A stretch of 64,000 nucleotides of DNA, from assembly GCF_001677475.2 (NCBI RefSeq), contig NZ_CP015229.1; one strand, given 5' to 3'. The notes beneath the pieces are model-generated. The model saw nothing but the letters and a program-made list of their open reading frames with translations. It had not been told where the DNA came from and ran no database searches. The stretch is from Escherichia coli (GTDB lineage Bacteria > Pseudomonadota > Gammaproteobacteria > Enterobacterales > Enterobacteriaceae). Shown in pieces: positions 33,992 to 42,852 of the stretch (its first letter is position 1; each line of letters starts with the position of its first letter). Position numbers and translations under genes: made by a program.

Positions 33992-34711
33992 ATCGCTGCG
34001 ACAGTGGCTAATGCTGTACTCAATAGGCCGTTGCTGTTGGTCAAGCGCCACTTGCTTGATCACCAGCACCGGTATTTTGCTATCTAACTGAATATGTGAC
34101 TGAAACTCGGCATCCGGCATCCGGGCGCTAACGCGGGAACGCGTACGTTGTGGGTAAATGTGCTGGCTGCGGAAATAGTCATAAAGAGAAATTCCGATGG
34201 CATCAACATCATGAATTAAATGCGCCGGAACCCACGATTCCTCAATCGATACCGCTTCTTCATCGACATAGCGAATACGCTTAAGCAAAAAGACATCACT
34301 TCCCGCTTCGACCGCCAGCTGCTGCGCGACTTCTTCGGGACATTTCACGACACGCTTGTTAACCCATAACGTATCGGGCTTTTTCCCGCGCAATACCACC
34401 TGCTGAGAAAAACCTCGCGCTTCTTTCAACGAGTATTCGAAGATGTTGTTGATCTGCGTGCCGTAACCACGCGAACGCGTCACCACACCCTCTTCTTCCA
34501 GCACCTGCATCGCCTTGCGCACCGTAATGCGCGAAACGCCGGTTAACTGACTTAAATCACGCTCACCGGGCAAAATATTGCCATGCTCCAGCACCCCGCT
34601 GCGCACGGCATTTTTTACCGTTTCGGCAAACTTGATATAAAGCGGCGTGTTATCCGTCGCTAAAATACGCTCGTTCAGTTGGGCAATCAGCTGGGTATGC
34701 GCTTGTTCCAT
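33965..34711 (-). CDS. yegW: GntR-family transcriptional regulator (UTRA effector domain)
   Basis: 248-aa ORF with N-terminal winged HTH (LPGERDLSQLTGVSRITVRKA); 3' end overlaps convergent yegV by 27 nt. Confidence 0.8.
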   Translation of the reverse strand: MEQAHTQLIAQLNERILATDNTPLYIKFAETVKNAVRSGVLEHGNILPGERDLSQLTGVSRITVRKAMQVLEEEGVVTRSRGYGTQINNIFEYSLKEARGFSQQVVLRGKKPDTLWVNKRVVKCPEEVAQQLAVEAGSDVFLLKRIRYVDEEAVSIEESWVPAHLIHDVDAIGISLYDYFRSQHIYPQRTRSRVSARMPDAEFQSHIQLDSKIPVLVIKQVALDQQQRPIEYSISHCRSDLYVFVCEE

Positions 34712-34762
34712 TTGTCTTTTTCCTGCCGGGGAGTCTGGTGGGAGTATATCACTGCTTCTTAT

Positions 34763-35581
34763 TTAAGGCGTTTCTTTAATCCCATCAACGAATGCCTGCA
34801 ACTCCTCCGCCGTGCCATTAAACACATTAAAATCCACCGGACCATTGATGCCATCTACCTGTCCACGGTCGGAATGCTGCCAGAAGCGCCAGGCCATTCC
34901 GTCATTGTCCGGACGACGTTGATAATAGTGAGCCACCCACCACGGATATTCATTGAAATAGCCCGCCAGATTCGAGTGATAAAAAACGGCTCCTGAGTAA
35001 ATAATCGGCTTTTTTCCCGTGCGTTTTTCGACCATTTTTAGCCACTGACTTACCCGCTTGCGTAATTCTTTTGCCGATAATTTTCCCCGTTCTTCTACGT
35101 CCAGCACGGCAGGGAGATCGCCGTGGGCAAAATCCACCGTTTGCAGAAATAATCGCGCCTGAACTGAAGCGGATACCGACGGGGACAAATAATGATACGC
35201 CCCGCGCAGCAGGCCATTTTCGCGGCTTAGTTGCCAGTTACGCGAAAAATAGGGGTCCACCAGCTTTTCGCCTTCCGTCGCCTTGATAAAGGCAAACTGC
35301 AAGCGAATACCGTTATCGCGCATTTTTGCCACCCGCTGCCAGTCGATTCGCTCCTGCCAGCGTGAAACATCAATACCATGAATGGTGTAACTGGCAGGAA
35401 TGCGAATAGCAAAAGATTTGACCGGACGATAACCGTAGAAGTGGATGTAGTCTTTAATCTGAATTGCTGTCGAGTAGAAAAAATTCACCGTCTGACGCGG
35501 ATAAATTGCAACGATGGAAATTAGCCCAAGAGCGCATAATAAAGCGGTGAATTTTTTTCGACTGGTGATTCTTAGCTGCAT
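34763..35581 (-). CDS. yegX: Glycoside hydrolase family 25 (lysozyme-like) protein
   Basis: Track ORF 34763..35590; GH25-like sequence with N-terminal signal/anchor. Start codon uncertain (35581 or 35590). Confidence 0.7.
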   Translation of the reverse strand: MQLRITSRKKFTALLCALGLISIVAIYPRQTVNFFYSTAIQIKDYIHFYGYRPVKSFAIRIPASYTIHGIDVSRWQERIDWQRVAKMRDNGIRLQFAFIKATEGEKLVDPYFSRNWQLSRENGLLRGAYHYLSPSVSASVQARLFLQTVDFAHGDLPAVLDVEERGKLSAKELRKRVSQWLKMVEKRTGKKPIIYSGAVFYHSNLAGYFNEYPWWVAHYYQRRPDNDGMAWRFWQHSDRGQVDGINGPVDFNVFNGTAEELQAFVDGIKETP

Positions 35582-35645
35582 TGGTTTCATCCCTGAATGT
35601 CAGCGCCAAAGACTGACAATAACCAAAGCAGCTATAGTAAGGTGC

Positions 35646-36446
35646 TCACCACCACGCGTGGAAGTGGTGAACCGGACCAATACCGTGACCAACTTCCAGC
35701 GTGTCGGCCTGGGCTAACGCCGATGAAAGCCAGCTTTTTGCCTCCTGTACGGTGTCAGCCCAGTTTGTATGGCGCGGGCGTAGTGCAGCCAACGCCGCAG
35801 AGAGCGTACAACCAGTGCCGTGGGTGTTTTTGGTCATAATGCGCGGTGCAGTAAATCGTTGTTCCCCCTCACGAGTAAACAGCCAGTCCGGGCTTTGCTC
35901 ATCATCCAGATGACCACCTTTCATTAGCACTGCGCCACAGCCCATCGCCAACAGCGATCGCCCTTGTTCCAGCATTTCCTGTTCGGTGCGCGCGTGTGGC
36001 GCGTCGAGCAAGGCGGCAGCTTCGGGCAAGTTTGGCGTTATTAATGAAACCTGTGGCAATAATCGACTGCGCAGCGTAGCAACCGCCGAAGGTGAAAGCA
36101 GCGGGTCGCCGCTTTTTGCCAGCATAACGGTATCAAGTACCACGTTTTTGATCTGATAACGTTGCAACCTTTCTGCCACCGCTTCAACAATATCGGTTTC
36201 CGCCAACATACCGATTTTAGTGGTGTCGATTCGCACATCGCTGAACACCGAATCGAGCTGGGCGGCGACAAAATCAGGCTCAATGCGATACACCGACTGT
36301 ACGCCACGGGTATTTTGCGCCACTAGTGCAGTAATAACTGAGCAACCATAAGCGCCAAGTGCCGAGAAGGTTTTAAGATCGGCCTGAATCCCCGCACCAC
36401 CACTCGGATCAGTACCGGCAATCGTCAGAGCGTTAATTCGTTTCAT
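35646..36446 (-). CDS. thiD: Hydroxymethylpyrimidine/phosphomethylpyrimidine kinase
   Basis: 266-aa ORF, ribokinase-like fold motifs ([12 protein letters not shown]); overlaps thiM stop. Confidence 0.9.
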
Positions 36447-37231
36447 GCCTGCACCTCCGGCGTCAATTGCCAGAGCGCATCAAGGAAATGTGGAACAAAA
36501 CTGCCTGGCCCCTCGCTTCTGGCGACTGCGCGTTCTCCGGCTTGTTTCATCCAGTGACAGGCAGATGCGGCATTTCCCAGCGTATCGCCTGGTAACGCAC
36601 TACAGGCAGCGACAACCGCCGATAATGCACAGCCAGTTCCCACCACTTTGGTCATTAACGGATCGCCGCCGTGAATGCCAACGGTGCGACGACCATCGGT
36701 AACATAATCCACCTCGCCAGTGACCACGACGATTGCGCCAGTTTCCCGTGCCAGTGTTTGTGCAGCGGGTATCGCATTAGCTACGGCGTCAGTGGTATCC
36801 ACTCCCCGTCCACCATTAGCAACGCCAGCTAATGCCATGATTTCCGAAGCATTACCACGTATGGCGGTTGGCTTATGAGACAGAAGTTCCAGACAAAAAC
36901 GGCGGCGATAGTCGAGTGCACCAACCGCAACCGGATCAAGCGTCCAGGGTGTTTGAGAGCTTTTTGCTTGCTCAACGGCGGCACGCATCGCCTGTGCGCG
37001 TGGCTGCGTCAGTGTGCCAACGTTAATCAGCAACGCACTGGCGATGGCCGCAAACTGACTGGCCTCTTCGGTTTCGATAACCATCGCTGGCGATGCACCA
37101 AGCGCCAGCAAGGTATTAGCAGTAAAGGTTTGCACCACATCGTTGGTCATGCAGTGCACAAGAGGGGAATGTTGGTGAAAAAGGTGTAACGTGTGCGCAG
37201 ATTGCGCGGAACTCAGCAGGTCGACTTGCAT
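36443..37231 (-). CDS. thiM: Hydroxyethylthiazole kinase
   Basis: 262-aa ORF immediately downstream of a TPP riboswitch. Confidence 0.9.
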
Positions 37232-37239
37232 AGTTTGCT

Positions 37240-37400
37240 CCTGCCATAACGTGAAGAAGCAATGACCTGGTGGTCCGTGACTTCCCTACGCTGGCATTAT
37301 CCAGATCAGGTGATACGGGTATTTCTCAGCCTTCACGCAGAAGGGCACCCCGAGTCGTTTGGTTGCGATGATAAATCGCAGAGGAGGATGGTAATGTCCA
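37240..37400 (-). promoter_or_regulatory. TPP (THI-box) riboswitch in the thiM leader
   Basis: Minus-strand sequence ...ggggtgcccttctgcgtgaaggctgagaaatacccgtatcacctgatctggataatgccagcgtagggaag... matches the thiM TPP aptamer (CUGAGA and conserved helices), at ~37281-37357. Confidence 0.85.
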
Positions 37401-37453
37401 GCGCACGCGTTGTAAACGAGGAAAAACCGCAGTTTTACAATCGCGTTAATAAA

Positions 37454-37726
37454 TTATTTGATATATGAATCCAGCACCTTCAGAACGACATCCAGATCTT
37501 CTTCACGTTTTAGCTCATCCCCCTGGTGAACGATGTGTTCCGTCAGATGACCTTTAATCACTTCCCGCATCAGACCGTTTACCGCGCCACGGATAGCTGC
37601 AATCTGTTGTAAAACTGCAGCGCATTCGTGCGGCTCGTCGAGCATTTTCTTGAGCGCCACGACCTGGCCCTGAATCTTACTGGCACGCGCTTTCAGTTTC
37701 TGTTTATCACGGATTGTATGAGACAT
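37454..37726 (-). CDS. rcnR: Ni/Co-responsive transcriptional repressor (CsoR/RcnR family)
   Basis: 90-aa ORF, divergent from rcnA. Confidence 0.85.
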
Positions 37727-37774
37727 GGCAACACCTGGTTAACAAGAACATGAAAAATCATAGCACTATTAATC

Positions 37775-37809
37775 TACTGGGGGGTAGTATCAGGTACTGG
37801 GGGGGAGTA
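37775..37809. promoter_or_regulatory. Tandem RcnR operator sites (TACT-G6/7-N-AGTA)
   Basis: tactggggggtagta (37775-37789) and tactgggggggagta (37795-37809) in the rcnR-rcnA intergenic region match the G-tract RcnR site pattern. Confidence 0.7.
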
Positions 37810-37846
37810 GAATCAGATTGCCGAATTAATACTAAGAATTATTATC

Positions 37847-38683
37847 ATGACCGAATTTACAACTCTTCTTCAGCAAGGAAACGCCTGGTTCTTCATCCCC
37901 AGCGCCATCTTACTTGGTGCGCTTCATGGCCTGGAACCAGGGCACTCAAAAACGATGATGGCGGCGTTTATCATCGCCATCAAAGGCACCATTAAACAGG
38001 CGGTGATGCTCGGACTGGCAGCAACTATTTCGCATACCGCAGTGGTCTGGTTGATTGCCTTTGGCGGGATGGTGATCAGCAAGCGTTTTACTGCTCAATC
38101 AGCAGAACCGTGGCTTCAGTTGATTTCCGCGGTGATCATTATTAGCACCGCGTTCTGGATGTTCTGGCGTACCTGGCGCGGCGAACGCAACTGGCTGGAG
38201 AATATGCACGGGCATGATCATGAGCATCATCACCATCATCACGAACATCATCAAGACCACGAACATCACCACGACCATGGACACCATCACGAACATGGCG
38301 AGTATCAGGATGCCCATGCACGAGCCCATGCCAATGACATTAAACGACGCTTTGATGGTAGAGAGGTCACCAACTGGCAAATTTTGTTATTTGGCTTAAC
38401 CGGTGGCCTTATCCCCTGCCCGGCAGCAATTACCGTGCTGTTGATTTGCATTCAGTTGAAAGCCCTGACACTGGGCGCAACACTGGTCGTCAGTTTCAGC
38501 ATTGGCCTGGCGTTAACGCTGGTCACCGTAGGCGTTGGCGCAGCAATCAGCGTTCAGCAGGTCGCAAAACGCTGGAGCGGATTTAACACTCTCGCTAAAC
38601 GCGCCCCCTATTTTTCCAGTCTGTTGATTGGCTTAGTTGGTGTGTATATGGGCGTACATGGCTTCATGGGCATAATGCGATAA
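37847..38683 (+). CDS. rcnA: Ni/Co efflux permease with His-rich loop
   Basis: 278-aa membrane ORF with extended His-rich loop HGHDHEHHHHHHEHHQDHEHHHDHGHHHEHGEYQDAH. Confidence 0.85.
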   Translation: MTEFTTLLQQGNAWFFIPSAILLGALHGLEPGHSKTMMAAFIIAIKGTIKQAVMLGLAATISHTAVVWLIAFGGMVISKRFTAQSAEPWLQLISAVIIISTAFWMFWRTWRGERNWLENMHGHDHEHHHHHHEHHQDHEHHHDHGHHHEHGEYQDAHARAHANDIKRRFDGREVTNWQILLFGLTGGLIPCPAAITVLLICIQLKALTLGATLVVSFSIGLALTLVTVGVGAAISVQQVAKRWSGFNTLAKRAPYFSSLLIGLVGVYMGVHGFMGIMR

Positions 38684-38901
38684 CTCAATCCTTTAGGCTT
38701 GCATGTTATCTTCAGCCCAGGATGATTCTTAAATCAGCTATTTCCGCTGACTCTCTGCTCGCTAAGGATGCTTTTAGGGCATCCTTTCATTTACACTTTT
38801 TACGAAATCATGGGATCACTAACAAAATATCGCTTGTCAGTTATATTGTATGGCAGGAAAGATATGCGACTGATATTACAGATCCCCAAAGTGGAGAGTT
38901 T

Positions 38902-39240
38902 ATGACCATTAAAAATAAGATGTTGCTGGGTGCGCTTTTGCTGGTTACCAGTGCCGCCTGGGCCGCACCAGCCACCGCGGGTTCGACCAATACCTCGGGA
39001 ATTTCTAAGTATGAGTTAAGCAGTTTCATTGCTGACTTTAAGCATTTCAAACCAGGCGATACCGTCCCAGAGATGTACCGCACCGATGAGTACAACATTA
39101 AGCAGTGGCAGTTACGTAACCTGCCCGCGCCTGATGCCGGGACGCACTGGACCTATATGGGTGGCGCGTACGTGTTGATCAGCGACACCGACGGTAAAAT
39201 CATTAAAGCCTACGACGGTGAGATTTTTTATCATCGCTAA
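38902..39240 (+). CDS. rcnB: Periplasmic Ni/Co homeostasis protein
   Basis: Track ORF 38722..39240; ATG at 38902 gives 112 aa starting MTIKNKMLLGALLLVTSAAWA (signal peptide). Confidence 0.8.
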   Translation: MTIKNKMLLGALLLVTSAAWAAPATAGSTNTSGISKYELSSFIADFKHFKPGDTVPEMYRTDEYNIKQWQLRNLPAPDAGTHWTYMGGAYVLISDTDGKIIKAYDGEIFYHR

Positions 39241-39246
39241 AAAAAG

Positions 39247-39265
39247 CCCCCTCATCATGAGGGGG
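39247..39265. terminator. Palindromic hairpin between convergent rcnB and yehA
   Basis: ccccctcatcatgaggggg palindrome flanked by aaaaa upstream (T-run on the minus strand) and a T-rich stretch downstream. Confidence 0.5.
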
Positions 39266-39321
39266 AAATGCAGACACCTTGTTATTTTTTATTATTAGCC
39301 ACTTGCTCGTCTTGCTTGTTA

Positions 39322-40356
39322 TTAGTCGTATTTCACGTTGATTAATGCGGTTGCCTCCAGTGCGCCAGATTTAACTTTGTTTGTATCGTAGACGTAGTAA
39401 CTGGCTGTTATCGGAATTGAAACCGTTGTATCTGTAAGTTTTGACTTTGCCGCAATTTCTTTTAAATTTGTGTATCCTTTACTGCTGTTAGTGATATTTA
39501 AAAGTGTGACTGGCGAACCATTACTTTCAAGAATAAATCCTACGCCATTATCTTCCGCACCTTTCAGTATTGTGTTGCTGTTGGTTAACAAGTCAGAACT
39601 TGATAAATACACCTGCATTTTCCGTGATGTTTGATTTTGTTGACCTAATAAATTTTTACAACGCAGAATAATATCCCCTTTTTTACTATTTATTGTTGCT
39701 TTGTTACCTGTGGCTGGTAATTGTGAAACGGGAATACTGTCTAAAGTAATTAATAAATCGTCCGGTTTGCAGGTTGTGGTTATCGGGTTGTATGACAATG
39801 TCAGATTAAAGGAATAGACACCTGCATTTTGTGCCAATGCATTTCTGTAGCTATTTACACATGCATCCCATGACTTGCCACCTAATAAACACAGTAGAAA
39901 TTGTACTGCGGCACTCCCGCGTGTCGATGATGAAGCACTGGATAATGTCGCAACTCCATTAATCATCACTGAACCGCCGCCTCCCGCAGAAACATTTACT
40001 TTTGCATTACTGGACGCAGGTGTCACCGTTACCGAATAACCACTGGTGAAACTGGTCTGATTATTTGACAACGTGATGTTGTTTTTATTGGTCCATTCAA
40101 AATGTAAATTTAATTTAATGGTATCGTTATAAAGTCCAACAATAATATCCGACGGGCTCATAGGGGTGATAGTATTTGTACTCACGCATGACGAATCATT
40201 AAAATTATGCTCATAGGTCGCCATTTGTGTTTGAGTAAGTGCAAAATCCCCCTGAACAACCAAATTGTGCTGAACAGATAACTCACTATAACATGCCGCA
40301 TAGCTCACAGGCATAACCATCATCATTAATATAAATAGCATTATGCGAATTTCCAT
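39322..40356 (-). CDS. yehA: Fimbrial adhesin-like subunit
   Basis: 344-aa ORF with N-terminal signal peptide; last gene of a chaperone-usher cluster. Confidence 0.7.
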   Translation of the reverse strand: MEIRIMLFILMMMVMPVSYAACYSELSVQHNLVVQGDFALTQTQMATYEHNFNDSSCVSTNTITPMSPSDIIVGLYNDTIKLNLHFEWTNKNNITLSNNQTSFTSGYSVTVTPASSNAKVNVSAGGGGSVMINGVATLSSASSSTRGSAAVQFLLCLLGGKSWDACVNSYRNALAQNAGVYSFNLTLSYNPITTTCKPDDLLITLDSIPVSQLPATGNKATINSKKGDIILRCKNLLGQQNQTSRKMQVYLSSSDLLTNSNTILKGAEDNGVGFILESNGSPVTLLNITNSSKGYTNLKEIAAKSKLTDTTVSIPITASYYVYDTNKVKSGALEATALINVKYD

Positions 40357-40371
40357 AGAACCACCTGACTA

Positions 40372-42852
40372 TTACTGGCAAATATAATTTCTACTTTCAT
40401 CAATCTCTTTACCGAAGGTGATTGTGCATGAAAGTCCTTGTTGCTTATCAATTGCTACATTAACCGATGGCGGTACTTCATTGGTGCGAATAAATAACTG
40501 GCTTCCCTGGCCGACAACGCCAATATTATGACCATGGATATCATTGACTTCATAACCAAACGTTAATGGTTGACCATCCGCTCTTAACGCTTTTATAAAC
40601 CAGGGCTTGCGCTGATCGGTATCAAAATTAACCAGTACAACCGCGCCGCGAAAAGGGGCGGCAATTTTCCGGTTGCCACGTAATTCTGCTTCGCTATCGC
40701 TTTGCGACACATCCAGCATCAGGTGATTTTCCCGATAAGGTGTCATTCCGTCGTATACCACCACTCCATTATGGTTTGTTGTGCGATATTTTTGCCCATT
40801 GACATAAGCATCTTTAATTCCTGGCGCATTCATCACAGCAAACGTTTCGGAAAGACGGTTCGCCAGATTAACGCCACCCGACCAGGCGACAATGCCCCCT
40901 GAAACACTGGCTCCAGCCTGTCGATAAGTACTCGACTGACTATAACTGCCATTCACCGTTGCCACCGGCGCGTTCCAGGTTAAATTCGCTCCAGCTGTCG
41001 TTTCATTTCCCTGATGCTGATGACTCAGGTTGACCCCATAGTTAAATTGATCCCGGCTTCCAACGGTTCCCGATAATCCCGTATTATTTGAGGCAAAACC
41101 CTGATCATCAAACGTCGTTGAGTTAGACATATATATTTGCCGACGAGGCGTCGTAACGTCATCACCCCAATCAAAGGGAATCGATATAAAAATATTAAAA
41201 CGTTTCTCTTCATGATGATTCTCGTCATAAGCCTGGCTTGCCGCGAGGGTATAGCTTATCCGTCGCAGGTTGTTGGAATAACTCAACTGATAATCCTTAC
41301 TGCTGCCGCTACGCCCCCAGTAATCTCGCCATAACGTACTTAAGGACACAGAACCCCAGCCTTCTGGCAATGACTGGCTCATATTGGCAGAAAAGCTATT
41401 TTTACGGCCAAAATCGTTCTGGTAATAATCGGCAATGTCATAGATATCGTTTTCATCACGGCGATAATTATCTTTATTGTTTGCCCAAACGTGATCGTTA
41501 AATGTCCGGTAATCACGCGACGAATAACGCCAGGCCGCCAGACCAAAACGCGTCGACGTTTGGCTCACAAATTTGTTGTAGGCAATTTGATAACTTTGCC
41601 CGTCAAACACATCGCCGTTGTCTTGTTTACTATGCGACTTCGTGGCATCGACGGAAATGGCACCAATGCGTGTATTCCAGCCAGTCCCCAAAGTGAACGC
41701 GTAATAATTATTCGCGACCATCGATCCGCCATACAGCGTCAATAAGTTATTAAAACCATACTGATAACCCGCCTGGACAAAATCACTTTGTTTGCTCGCC
41801 CCTTCAATATGGCTACGACCCGCCGCAAAATCATATTTCGACACGCCAGGTTGCAGCATATTCGGCACCGCTGAATAAGGCACCAGATAGGTGGTTACCG
41901 AACCGTCCGCCTCTTTCACGCTGACATCAAGATCTGCTCCACCACCGGCCAACTGCAAATCTGTAATCGCAAACGGGCCAGGAGGAACCTCTTTCTGATA
42001 AACGACAAAACCATTCTGTTCAATAGTTACCAACGCGTTACTCTGAGCAATCCCCTGCACCCGTGGCGTAAAATTTTGTTTCGAGTTAGGCAACATCTGC
42101 ATATCACGAAACAACCGCACACCTCTGAAGCGAACAGAATCAAAAATATCGCTTGATGTATACATATCACCCACGCGAAGCGTGCCGAGAAGTTGGACAA
42201 ATCCACGTTCCAGATACAGGGTATTGCTTTTCCACACCCCTGGATTGTTATTTGTTTTACTGAAACTTGCATCAGAATGCAGTTGCCACCCCAGTAAATT
42301 TAACCCGCTGTTAAAACGTACATATGTACTCTTACTGTTACCCGACGCTTTATAGTCACTGTAATACTGACTCACATAATAAGAGGTATAAACCGCATTA
42401 ATACCCCGCTCCCAGTTTTCCGGTGGAACATAGCCACTTTCCAGTTCTTCCACCCAGGCCTGCGGGACACTGAAATCGAGACGAAAAACCCCGATATCCC
42501 AGGTATAGCTCCCACCCTGAACAAGTTGCTCAAATGTTAAACATTGCTTACCGCTGGCGAAGTTATCGCTATTAATGCCTAACCGCTTGATAACTTCTCT
42601 TGATAAACATGTTTCTTGCGGGTTGTCTTTAACAATAATCTCATATTTCCCGCGCCATTGCTTATTGACATAAATATCGATGTCATACTGCCCCGGCAAG
42701 GGTTGATTATCATCAAGACGAATATTTGCAACCTGCTGGTCTTTCATTCCACCTATCATAAAATGGGTATCAAAGGTTTCTTCAGCTGCATAAGCTTCAA
42801 TGCCGAGCAATAACGCTACGATTGCTGATGCAAGTGGGGTCATTCTCAACAT
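40372..42852 (-). CDS. yehB: Fimbrial outer-membrane usher
   Basis: Track ORF 40372..42867; ~826-831 aa, usher-sized with signal peptide. Start codon uncertain. Confidence 0.8.
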   Translation of the reverse strand: MLRMTPLASAIVALLLGIEAYAAEETFDTHFMIGGMKDQQVANIRLDDNQPLPGQYDIDIYVNKQWRGKYEIIVKDNPQETCLSREVIKRLGINSDNFASGKQCLTFEQLVQGGSYTWDIGVFRLDFSVPQAWVEELESGYVPPENWERGINAVYTSYYVSQYYSDYKASGNSKSTYVRFNSGLNLLGWQLHSDASFSKTNNNPGVWKSNTLYLERGFVQLLGTLRVGDMYTSSDIFDSVRFRGVRLFRDMQMLPNSKQNFTPRVQGIAQSNALVTIEQNGFVVYQKEVPPGPFAITDLQLAGGGADLDVSVKEADGSVTTYLVPYSAVPNMLQPGVSKYDFAAGRSHIEGASKQSDFVQAGYQYGFNNLLTLYGGSMVANNYYAFTLGTGWNTRIGAISVDATKSHSKQDNGDVFDGQSYQIAYNKFVSQTSTRFGLAAWRYSSRDYRTFNDHVWANNKDNYRRDENDIYDIADYYQNDFGRKNSFSANMSQSLPEGWGSVSLSTLWRDYWGRSGSSKDYQLSYSNNLRRISYTLAASQAYDENHHEEKRFNIFISIPFDWGDDVTTPRRQIYMSNSTTFDDQGFASNNTGLSGTVGSRDQFNYGVNLSHQHQGNETTAGANLTWNAPVATVNGSYSQSSTYRQAGASVSGGIVAWSGGVNLANRLSETFAVMNAPGIKDAYVNGQKYRTTNHNGVVVYDGMTPYRENHLMLDVSQSDSEAELRGNRKIAAPFRGAVVLVNFDTDQRKPWFIKALRADGQPLTFGYEVNDIHGHNIGVVGQGSQLFIRTNEVPPSVNVAIDKQQGLSCTITFGKEIDESRNYICQ

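Follow-up and report, generated by a model that had tools for sequence, protein, structure and literature searches.

Is the longer histidine-rich loop encoded by the nickel/cobalt efflux gene rcnA of one E. coli strain a difference of its own, or one allele of a tract already known to vary? The locus was studied within a 64,000-nucleotide stretch of E. coli DNA (contig NZ_CP015229.1; the window). The original prediction had set an RcnA of 278 aa against 274 aa for K-12, and had placed the difference in a His/Asp/Glu loop built from repetitive codons. Both lengths proved right: the open reading frame list gives rcnA (yohM) at 37847..38683 on the plus strand with 278 aa, and the K-12 MG1655 gene is 825 nt and encodes 274 aa. 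Window RcnA was matched over its full length by curated family profiles and well above their cutoffs, with Pfam PF03824 (NicO) scoring 237.5 bits (cutoff 27.7, aa 13-277) and NCBIfam NF007454 (nickel/cobalt efflux) scoring 560.4 bits (cutoff 195, aa 1-278). All matching E. coli records carry the annotation name rcnA. By these matches window RcnA is predicted to be a NicO-family protein of the inner membrane that exports Ni/Co; for K-12 RcnA, Ni/Co efflux or resistance was demonstrated by Rodrigue et al. 2005, as cited in PMC11445613 and in an experimental-evolution paper.

The surroundings are those of the standard E. coli rcn locus, with a divergent rcnR, a downstream rcnB, and paired boxes between rcnR and rcnA. 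rcnR (37454..37726, minus strand), encoding the Ni(II)/Co(II)-responsive repressor, was identified by the NCBIfam equivalog NF011613 (197.3 bits, cutoff 138). A pattern search of the 120-nt rcnR-rcnA intergenic region located two TACT-G6-N-AGTA boxes on the plus strand (37775-37789 and 37795-37809) against none expected by chance; the second contains a run of seven Gs. This motif has the form that Iwig and Chivers reportedly described for RcnR operators. Across five diverse E. coli strains the intergenic region hardly varied, and both boxes were invariant in spite of their homopolymeric G, so that regulation of rcnA looks unchanged. rcnB (yohN; 38902..39240, plus strand), which encodes an accessory subunit, lies 3' of rcnA in the position that it has in annotated genomes; NCBIfam gave no match to it in the window profile search, and Pfam RcnB was matched on the identical locus L010. 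Further upstream, a TPP riboswitch precedes thiM at 37266-37362 on the minus strand (Rfam RF00059, 71.2 bits) and is annotated likewise in K-12. Beyond rcnR, most strains carry thiM and thiD. The O157-lineage loci L004 and L008 (327-998) carry genes for a hypothetical protein and an outer membrane protein there, and L011 (193-2354), from an assembly encoding the exact window RcnA, carries a phage-type integrase and an HNH gene. The region upstream of rcnR may be an insertion hotspot.

The length-variable tract itself was delimited at 38207..38302 on the plus strand (gene nt 361-456, aa 121-152), where it encodes HGHDHEHHHHHHEHHQDHEHHHDHGHHHEHGE between conserved ENM and YQDA flanks. Of the 26 His of window RcnA (278 aa), 20 fall within the 30-residue His-rich core of the tract (aa 121-150, 38207..38296; hypergeometric P ~4e-18). 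The 32 codons of the tract comprise 12 CAT, 8 CAC, 3 GAA, 2 GAG, 2 GAC, 1 GAT and 4 others, in keeping with the repetitive codons that had been described; NAY codons (His, Asp), which are decoded by queuosine-modified tRNAs, account for about 23 of them. The interval first given for the loop, 38214-38330, was roughly right but misplaced at both ends. Its start is the middle base of codon 123, where a spurious out-of-frame ORF also starts, and its end overshoots the tract by 28 nt, into conserved sequence. Spurious ORFs of 59-93 aa cross the tract in other frames and on both strands (38214-38399, plus; 38099-38380 and 38142-38321, minus) because the CAT/CAC codons are repetitive.

At the DNA level the tract consists of degenerate 6-nt (His-Asp or His-Glu), 9-nt and 18-nt repeats. 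Tandem Repeats Finder returned overlapping arrays with periods of 9, 12, 18 and 21 nt and 71-90% matches, the period-18 array having 3.0-3.6 copies, and a repeat search of the tract gave 9 copies, all in register and spaced 9 or 12 nt apart. The longest perfect tandem repeat of the window allele is short, being two copies of the 9-nt unit CATCATCAC at 38234..38251 on the plus strand (offset 27 in an extract of the loop taken from gene nt 352 onward).

Comparison with K-12 MG1655 showed that the entire difference between 278 and 274 aa (four residues, net +12 nt) falls inside the His/Asp/Glu tract, as had been claimed. Reading codon by codon, the window has one added 18-nt unit, CAT CAT CAA GAC CAC GAA (HHQDHE), its last His run is 6 nt shorter (HHH in place of HHHHH), and it has a few substitutions, Tyr to His and Asp to His among them. 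The window allele is not simply the K-12 allele made longer. The most economical account of the alignment is a gain of one 18-nt unit, a loss of 6 nt from the last His run and the substitutions, and this describes the alignment rather than a reconstructed history.

The prevalence of such differences was then examined by megablast of rcnA against 5,426 complete E. coli genomes. The gene was matched in 5,365 of these, and a match was absent from the other 61; one match lay on a plasmid, and some genomes had two matching places. The window allele was found in none of the complete genomes searched, the nearest being 97.9% identical over 840 nt, and for the 8 kb at 34000-42000 the best match among the 5,426 complete RefSeq genomes was 98.1%. 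As far as the rcn locus shows, the lineage of the window strain seems to be without a near relation in the complete-genome set. Gene lengths were read from match coordinates in two even-step samples taken down the ranked match lists. The K-12 length of 825 nt was found in 85 of 98 full-length sampled rows, or ~87%, an approximate percentage since both samples were drawn from the same population. The remaining rows had lengths of 786, 803, 804, 810, 824, 840, 846, 849, 852 and 858 nt. Short BLAST queries covering only the loop were avoided for allele counts, as local alignments clipped at an indel inflate the identity bands.

For a direct comparison of alleles, 14 complete-genome loci were fetched, and 13 intact alleles, the window included, were aligned. 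The alignment of rcnA across strains that had been proposed for quantifying length polymorphism was thereby carried out, and loop length was far from uniform. No two of the 13 alleles shared a loop sequence; measured from the ENM to the YQD flank, the loops had 10 different lengths, from 45 to 117 nt, and the encoded proteins were of 261-285 aa. All length differences lay inside the tract and were multiples of 3. The flanking 741 nt of coding sequence contained 55 variable nucleotides and only 6 variable amino acid positions. Every allele remained His-rich, with 9-22 His in the loop; the lowest count was that of LF82, whose intact rcnA encodes a core of 15 residues with 9 His. Substitutions between loops included Tyr/His, Gly/Glu, Asp/His, Glu/Lys and Gln/His. 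One further route to a 278-aa protein was seen in E. coli DA33133 (L009, 2335-3840), where the last RcnA codon (Arg) has become a stop; the rcnB gene of this strain is truncated by an IS3-family ISSen4 element.

The clearest view of how the lengths change came from the O157 lineage. PNUSAE147328, YB14-1, TW14588 and SS52 have zero differences in their flanks and carry (GACCAC)3, (GACCAC)4, (GACCAC)5 and (GACCAC)6, encoding RcnA proteins of 279, 281, 283 and 285 aa, respectively, and one CATGAG (His-Glu) unit separates two further genomes. Such unit-sized stepwise changes have the signature of textbook slippage. Replication slippage, or unequal exchange between repeat units, would add or remove whole units. 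Because unit changes are always in frame, they would leave RcnA whole and alter nothing but how many metal-binding side chains its loop offers. Many amino acid substitutions are found in the loop, so point mutation probably contributes beside slippage, as possibly does recombination. The expectation of a slippage-type length difference between E. coli strains was therefore borne out by the 10 lengths among 13 alleles and by the (GACCAC)3-6 series.

The tract had also been described as prone to slippage, and this holds for the locus, with its 6-nt steps in O157, but less well for the allele that gave rise to the statement. The window loop DNA was found unchanged in three backgrounds in which the gene differs at 1-2 synonymous sites and the 3-kb downstream flank at 4-44 sites. 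Because its longest perfect repeat is only 2 × 9 nt and its loop is the same in all three backgrounds, the window allele is probably fairly stable and unlikely to be highly mutable. High mutability belongs to the O157 and Salmonella arrays and is not demonstrated by the window allele, although the locus as a whole is slippage-prone. A phase-variable on/off contingency locus was also considered and rejected. Length differences in the loop are all multiples of 3, so that the frame is never shifted; the long perfect tract expected of such a locus is lacking in the window, with its 2 × 9 nt repeat and its loop identical in three backgrounds, and the O157 alleles would fit better. Among the fetched records, the two whose lengths are not multiples of 3 are annotated as pseudogenes, and the loop is not where they are frameshifted: M37H (L006) has lost 22 nt near codon 225, and 1912D004 (L007) 1 nt near codon 36. 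Loss of rcnA is therefore occasional in natural isolates.

Primer mapping identified the tract with typing loci in established use. CVN007 reportedly belongs to the generic E. coli MLVA scheme of Lindstedt et al. 2007 and to the 7- and 10-locus GECM schemes, and VNTR-19, or O157-19 or TR7, is said to be used in the E. coli O157:H7 MLVA schemes of Noller 2003, Keys 2005 and PulseNet. The CVN007 primers (PMC8143711) map to 38107..38127 on the plus strand with 1 mismatch and to 38467..38487 on the minus strand with 0 mismatches, giving an amplicon of 381 bp in the window. By the published formula, (product − 314)/18, the window scores (381 − 314)/18 = 3.7 and hence allele 4, and K-12 scores allele 3. 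Of the isolates reported on in PMC3407997, 87% had allele 3, in agreement with the ~87% of sampled genes that are 825 nt long. The window is in this respect a plain CVN007 allele of ~3.7 units with no difference in kind. No CVN primer other than those of CVN007 maps in the window; CVN014, which had been a candidate for the generic MLVA locus in rcnA, was discarded since its primers map nowhere in the window.

The VNTR-19 primers (PMC8461963) likewise bracket the rcnA tract, at 38129..38164 on the plus strand with 2 mismatches and at 38394..38422 on the minus strand with 3 mismatches, and the amplicon computed for the window is 294 bp, within the published range of 283-357 bp (PMC8461963). On the O157-lineage loci L004 and L008 the forward primer matched exactly and the two primers had 0 and 1 mismatches, with amplicons of 297 and 309 bp that also lie within 283-357 bp. 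The published repeat units are 18 bp for CVN007 (PMC8143711) and 6 bp for VNTR-19, also called O157-19 or TR7 (PMC3768571), and both match repeats of the tract, namely the period of 18 found by Tandem Repeats Finder and the 6-nt GACCAC array of the O157 lineage. In O157 the VNTR-19 unit is GACCAC (Asp-His) in 3-6 copies, whereas the window, which is not of the O157 lineage, is without a perfect (GACCAC)n array and ends its loop in EHGEYQD where the O157 lineage has EHGDNEEYQD. The marks of a VNTR locus are all present at the tract: primers that bracket it, repeats of the published unit sizes, and copy number that differs from strain to strain between conserved flanks.

Counterparts of the tract were also found in the literature on related genera. 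In Salmonella, the typing locus STTR5 is a CACGAC repeat in yohM (rcnA) between two protein domains (PMC5183578, PMC1781188, PMC3391293), and in one of these three papers STTR5 alleles of 12,112 isolates concentrate in the middle of the range, at 8-14 units. Passage of Salmonella in chickens was accompanied by a 54-nt deletion at gene position 367 that removed (HD)9 (PMC6760104). The Salmonella gene is orthologous, its hexanucleotide encodes His-Asp, and the deletion site (gene nt 367, aa 123) falls at the position of the window tract (gene nt 361-456, aa 121-152). Judged through the published descriptions, the two differ in that Salmonella has a long perfect array, commonly of 8-14 units, whose length shifts in the course of outbreaks and passage, whereas the window tract is short and interrupted. 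In Klebsiella pneumoniae, MLVA locus 27 is a 6-bp repeat in rcnA with 0-19 units (PMC3948817), although both the species and the motif, CATGGT as printed, differ from those of the window. His/Asp insertions in the RcnA loop have been described between Klebsiella clinical isolates, and their link to carbapenem resistance is speculative (PMC11445613). A more distant RcnA homologue, in cable bacteria, has a loop enlarged to 100-123 aa, 33-53 of them His (PMC11247825). It shares the NicO membrane helices and a central loop, predicted to be cytoplasmic, of varying length and His count, but this variation is much larger, lies between distant taxa and is not described as a within-species repeat polymorphism. 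The polymorphism in rcnA loop length is thus already known, as the established typing locus CVN007 and VNTR-19/O157-19/TR7 and as the orthologue of STTR5, and the loop-length difference does not stand as a new lead.

Two other accounts of the window allele were weighed. An artefact of assembly or sequencing in a repetitive tract was worth considering, given that some long-read pipelines can miscall short repeats and that frameshifted rcnA records exist. The difference is in frame, however, and the exact 278-aa RcnA of the window is already public (for example, ANO89881.1, 'nickel/cobalt efflux protein RcnA [Escherichia coli]') and recorded on 47 contigs from several sources. It was found again on 24 contigs, which include a 6,837-nt stretch of the draft assembly GCA_016118575.1 without a single difference from the window, as well as two further backgrounds in which the loop DNA is the same. 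These independent assemblies effectively refute an artefact, and we give it next to no credence.

An origin by homologous recombination between existing rcnA alleles, with the 278-aa allele acquired whole or as a mosaic rather than generated by local slippage, has more to recommend it. The window loop joins the (CATCATCAC)2 start found in M19 with the CAT CAT CAA GAC CAC GAA unit found in DA33133 and E203449. The same loop occurs, in genes 1-2 synonymous sites apart, in three flank contexts, one of which has an integrase/HNH island upstream of rcnR. In its 3' flank, moreover, the O157-lineage gene shows 24 differences where the other alleles show 2-5, which suggests imported segments. The same motifs could nevertheless recur by slippage within so repetitive a tract, and 13 alleles cannot separate recombination from convergent slippage; we therefore regard a recombinational origin as possible but somewhat doubtful. 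It bears on how one allele arose and does not conflict with the tract being a VNTR. Taken together, it is highly likely that the rcnA tract is a known VNTR, identical with CVN007/VNTR-19, in which in-frame slippage or unequal exchange changes the length of a loop in a NicO protein; the loop would bind Ni/Co in the cytoplasm, and the changes would be nearly neutral.

The placement of the loop bears on its possible function. The tract forms a central, hydrophilic, His-rich loop between membrane domains, with hydrophobic segments at aa 88-108 and 179-220 on either side, and would sit between the third and fourth hydrophobic segments of RcnA. Its borders are rich in Arg and Lys (WRTWRGERNW and NDIKRRFDGRE), with 8 Lys/Arg in aa 105-185 next to the hydrophobic segments. 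Under the positive-inside rule, these Lys/Arg borders point to a cytoplasmic loop. For the cable-bacteria homologue, which is described as having canonical RcnA architecture, the central His-rich loop is also predicted to be cytoplasmic (PMC11247825). Cytoplasmic Ni/Co is probably captured or buffered by the loop where it enters the efflux path, and the view that RcnA may act partly as a chelator through its loop is cited in a passage of PMC11247825. A PDB sequence search with RcnA yielded no NicO-family structure; its matches were to histidine tags and to tails rich in His.

In CDF and ZIP transporters, loops rich in His modulate selectivity or sensing, and the length and composition of the RcnA loop might also be adaptive, with more or fewer His/Asp/Glu ligands selected to set Ni/Co buffering capacity, the rate or threshold of efflux, or selectivity for Ni versus Co, making the tract an evolvable tuning knob. 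In-frame addition or removal of His-Asp/His-Glu units would then alter the amount of Ni/Co that a cytoplasmic loop takes up. Some constraint is indicated by the fact that the loop is strongly His-rich (9-22 His) and in frame in every allele, and the preference for mid-range STTR5 alleles of 8-14 units among the 12,112 Salmonella isolates could reflect selection on length. The 100-123-aa loop with 33-53 His of the cable bacteria, which are heavy users of nickel, points the same way (PMC11247825). Large changes are tolerated, however, as seen in the 15-residue core with 9 His of LF82 and in the loss of (HD)9 by Salmonella in passage, and one length is shared by ~87% of E. coli across very different niches. 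The conserved rcnR gene and operator region, furthermore, give no sign of regulatory co-adaptation. The papers found, including PMC11445613 and PMC6760104, only speculate that repeat number affects metal resistance, with no experimental test among them, and the literature search found no experiment on the RcnA loop itself or on loop length against metal capacity or selectivity. An experimental-evolution paper reports a single SNV in rcnA and nothing on the loop, and the 'rcnA' of a DNA-repair review is another acronym, for replication-coupled nucleosome assembly. We therefore consider adaptive tuning improbable, and assume instead that most length variants are functionally tolerated and near neutral. 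As a weaker variant of the tuning idea, RcnA translation could be unusually sensitive to the state of tRNA modification, given that about 23 of 32 loop codons are NAY. A queuosine-less tgt mutant of E. coli is more resistant to Ni/Co, an effect that its authors credit to repression of nikABCDE and not to RcnA (PMC9508795).

The difference in the window is real and ordinary. The tract has been in use since the mid-2000s for subtyping E. coli, O157:H7, Salmonella and Klebsiella, and as a discovery it therefore matters little. Its value is practical: the window strain scores CVN007 allele 4 (381 bp) and would give a VNTR-19 product of 294 bp if the primers anneal despite 2-3 mismatches. Allele formulas that assume fixed units, such as the whole 18-bp units of CVN007, blur distinct sequences, because real alleles differ by 3, 6, 9 and 18 nt. 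Should the loop prove to be a tuning knob after all, lineages whose environments differ in metals would be selected for different rcnA alleles.
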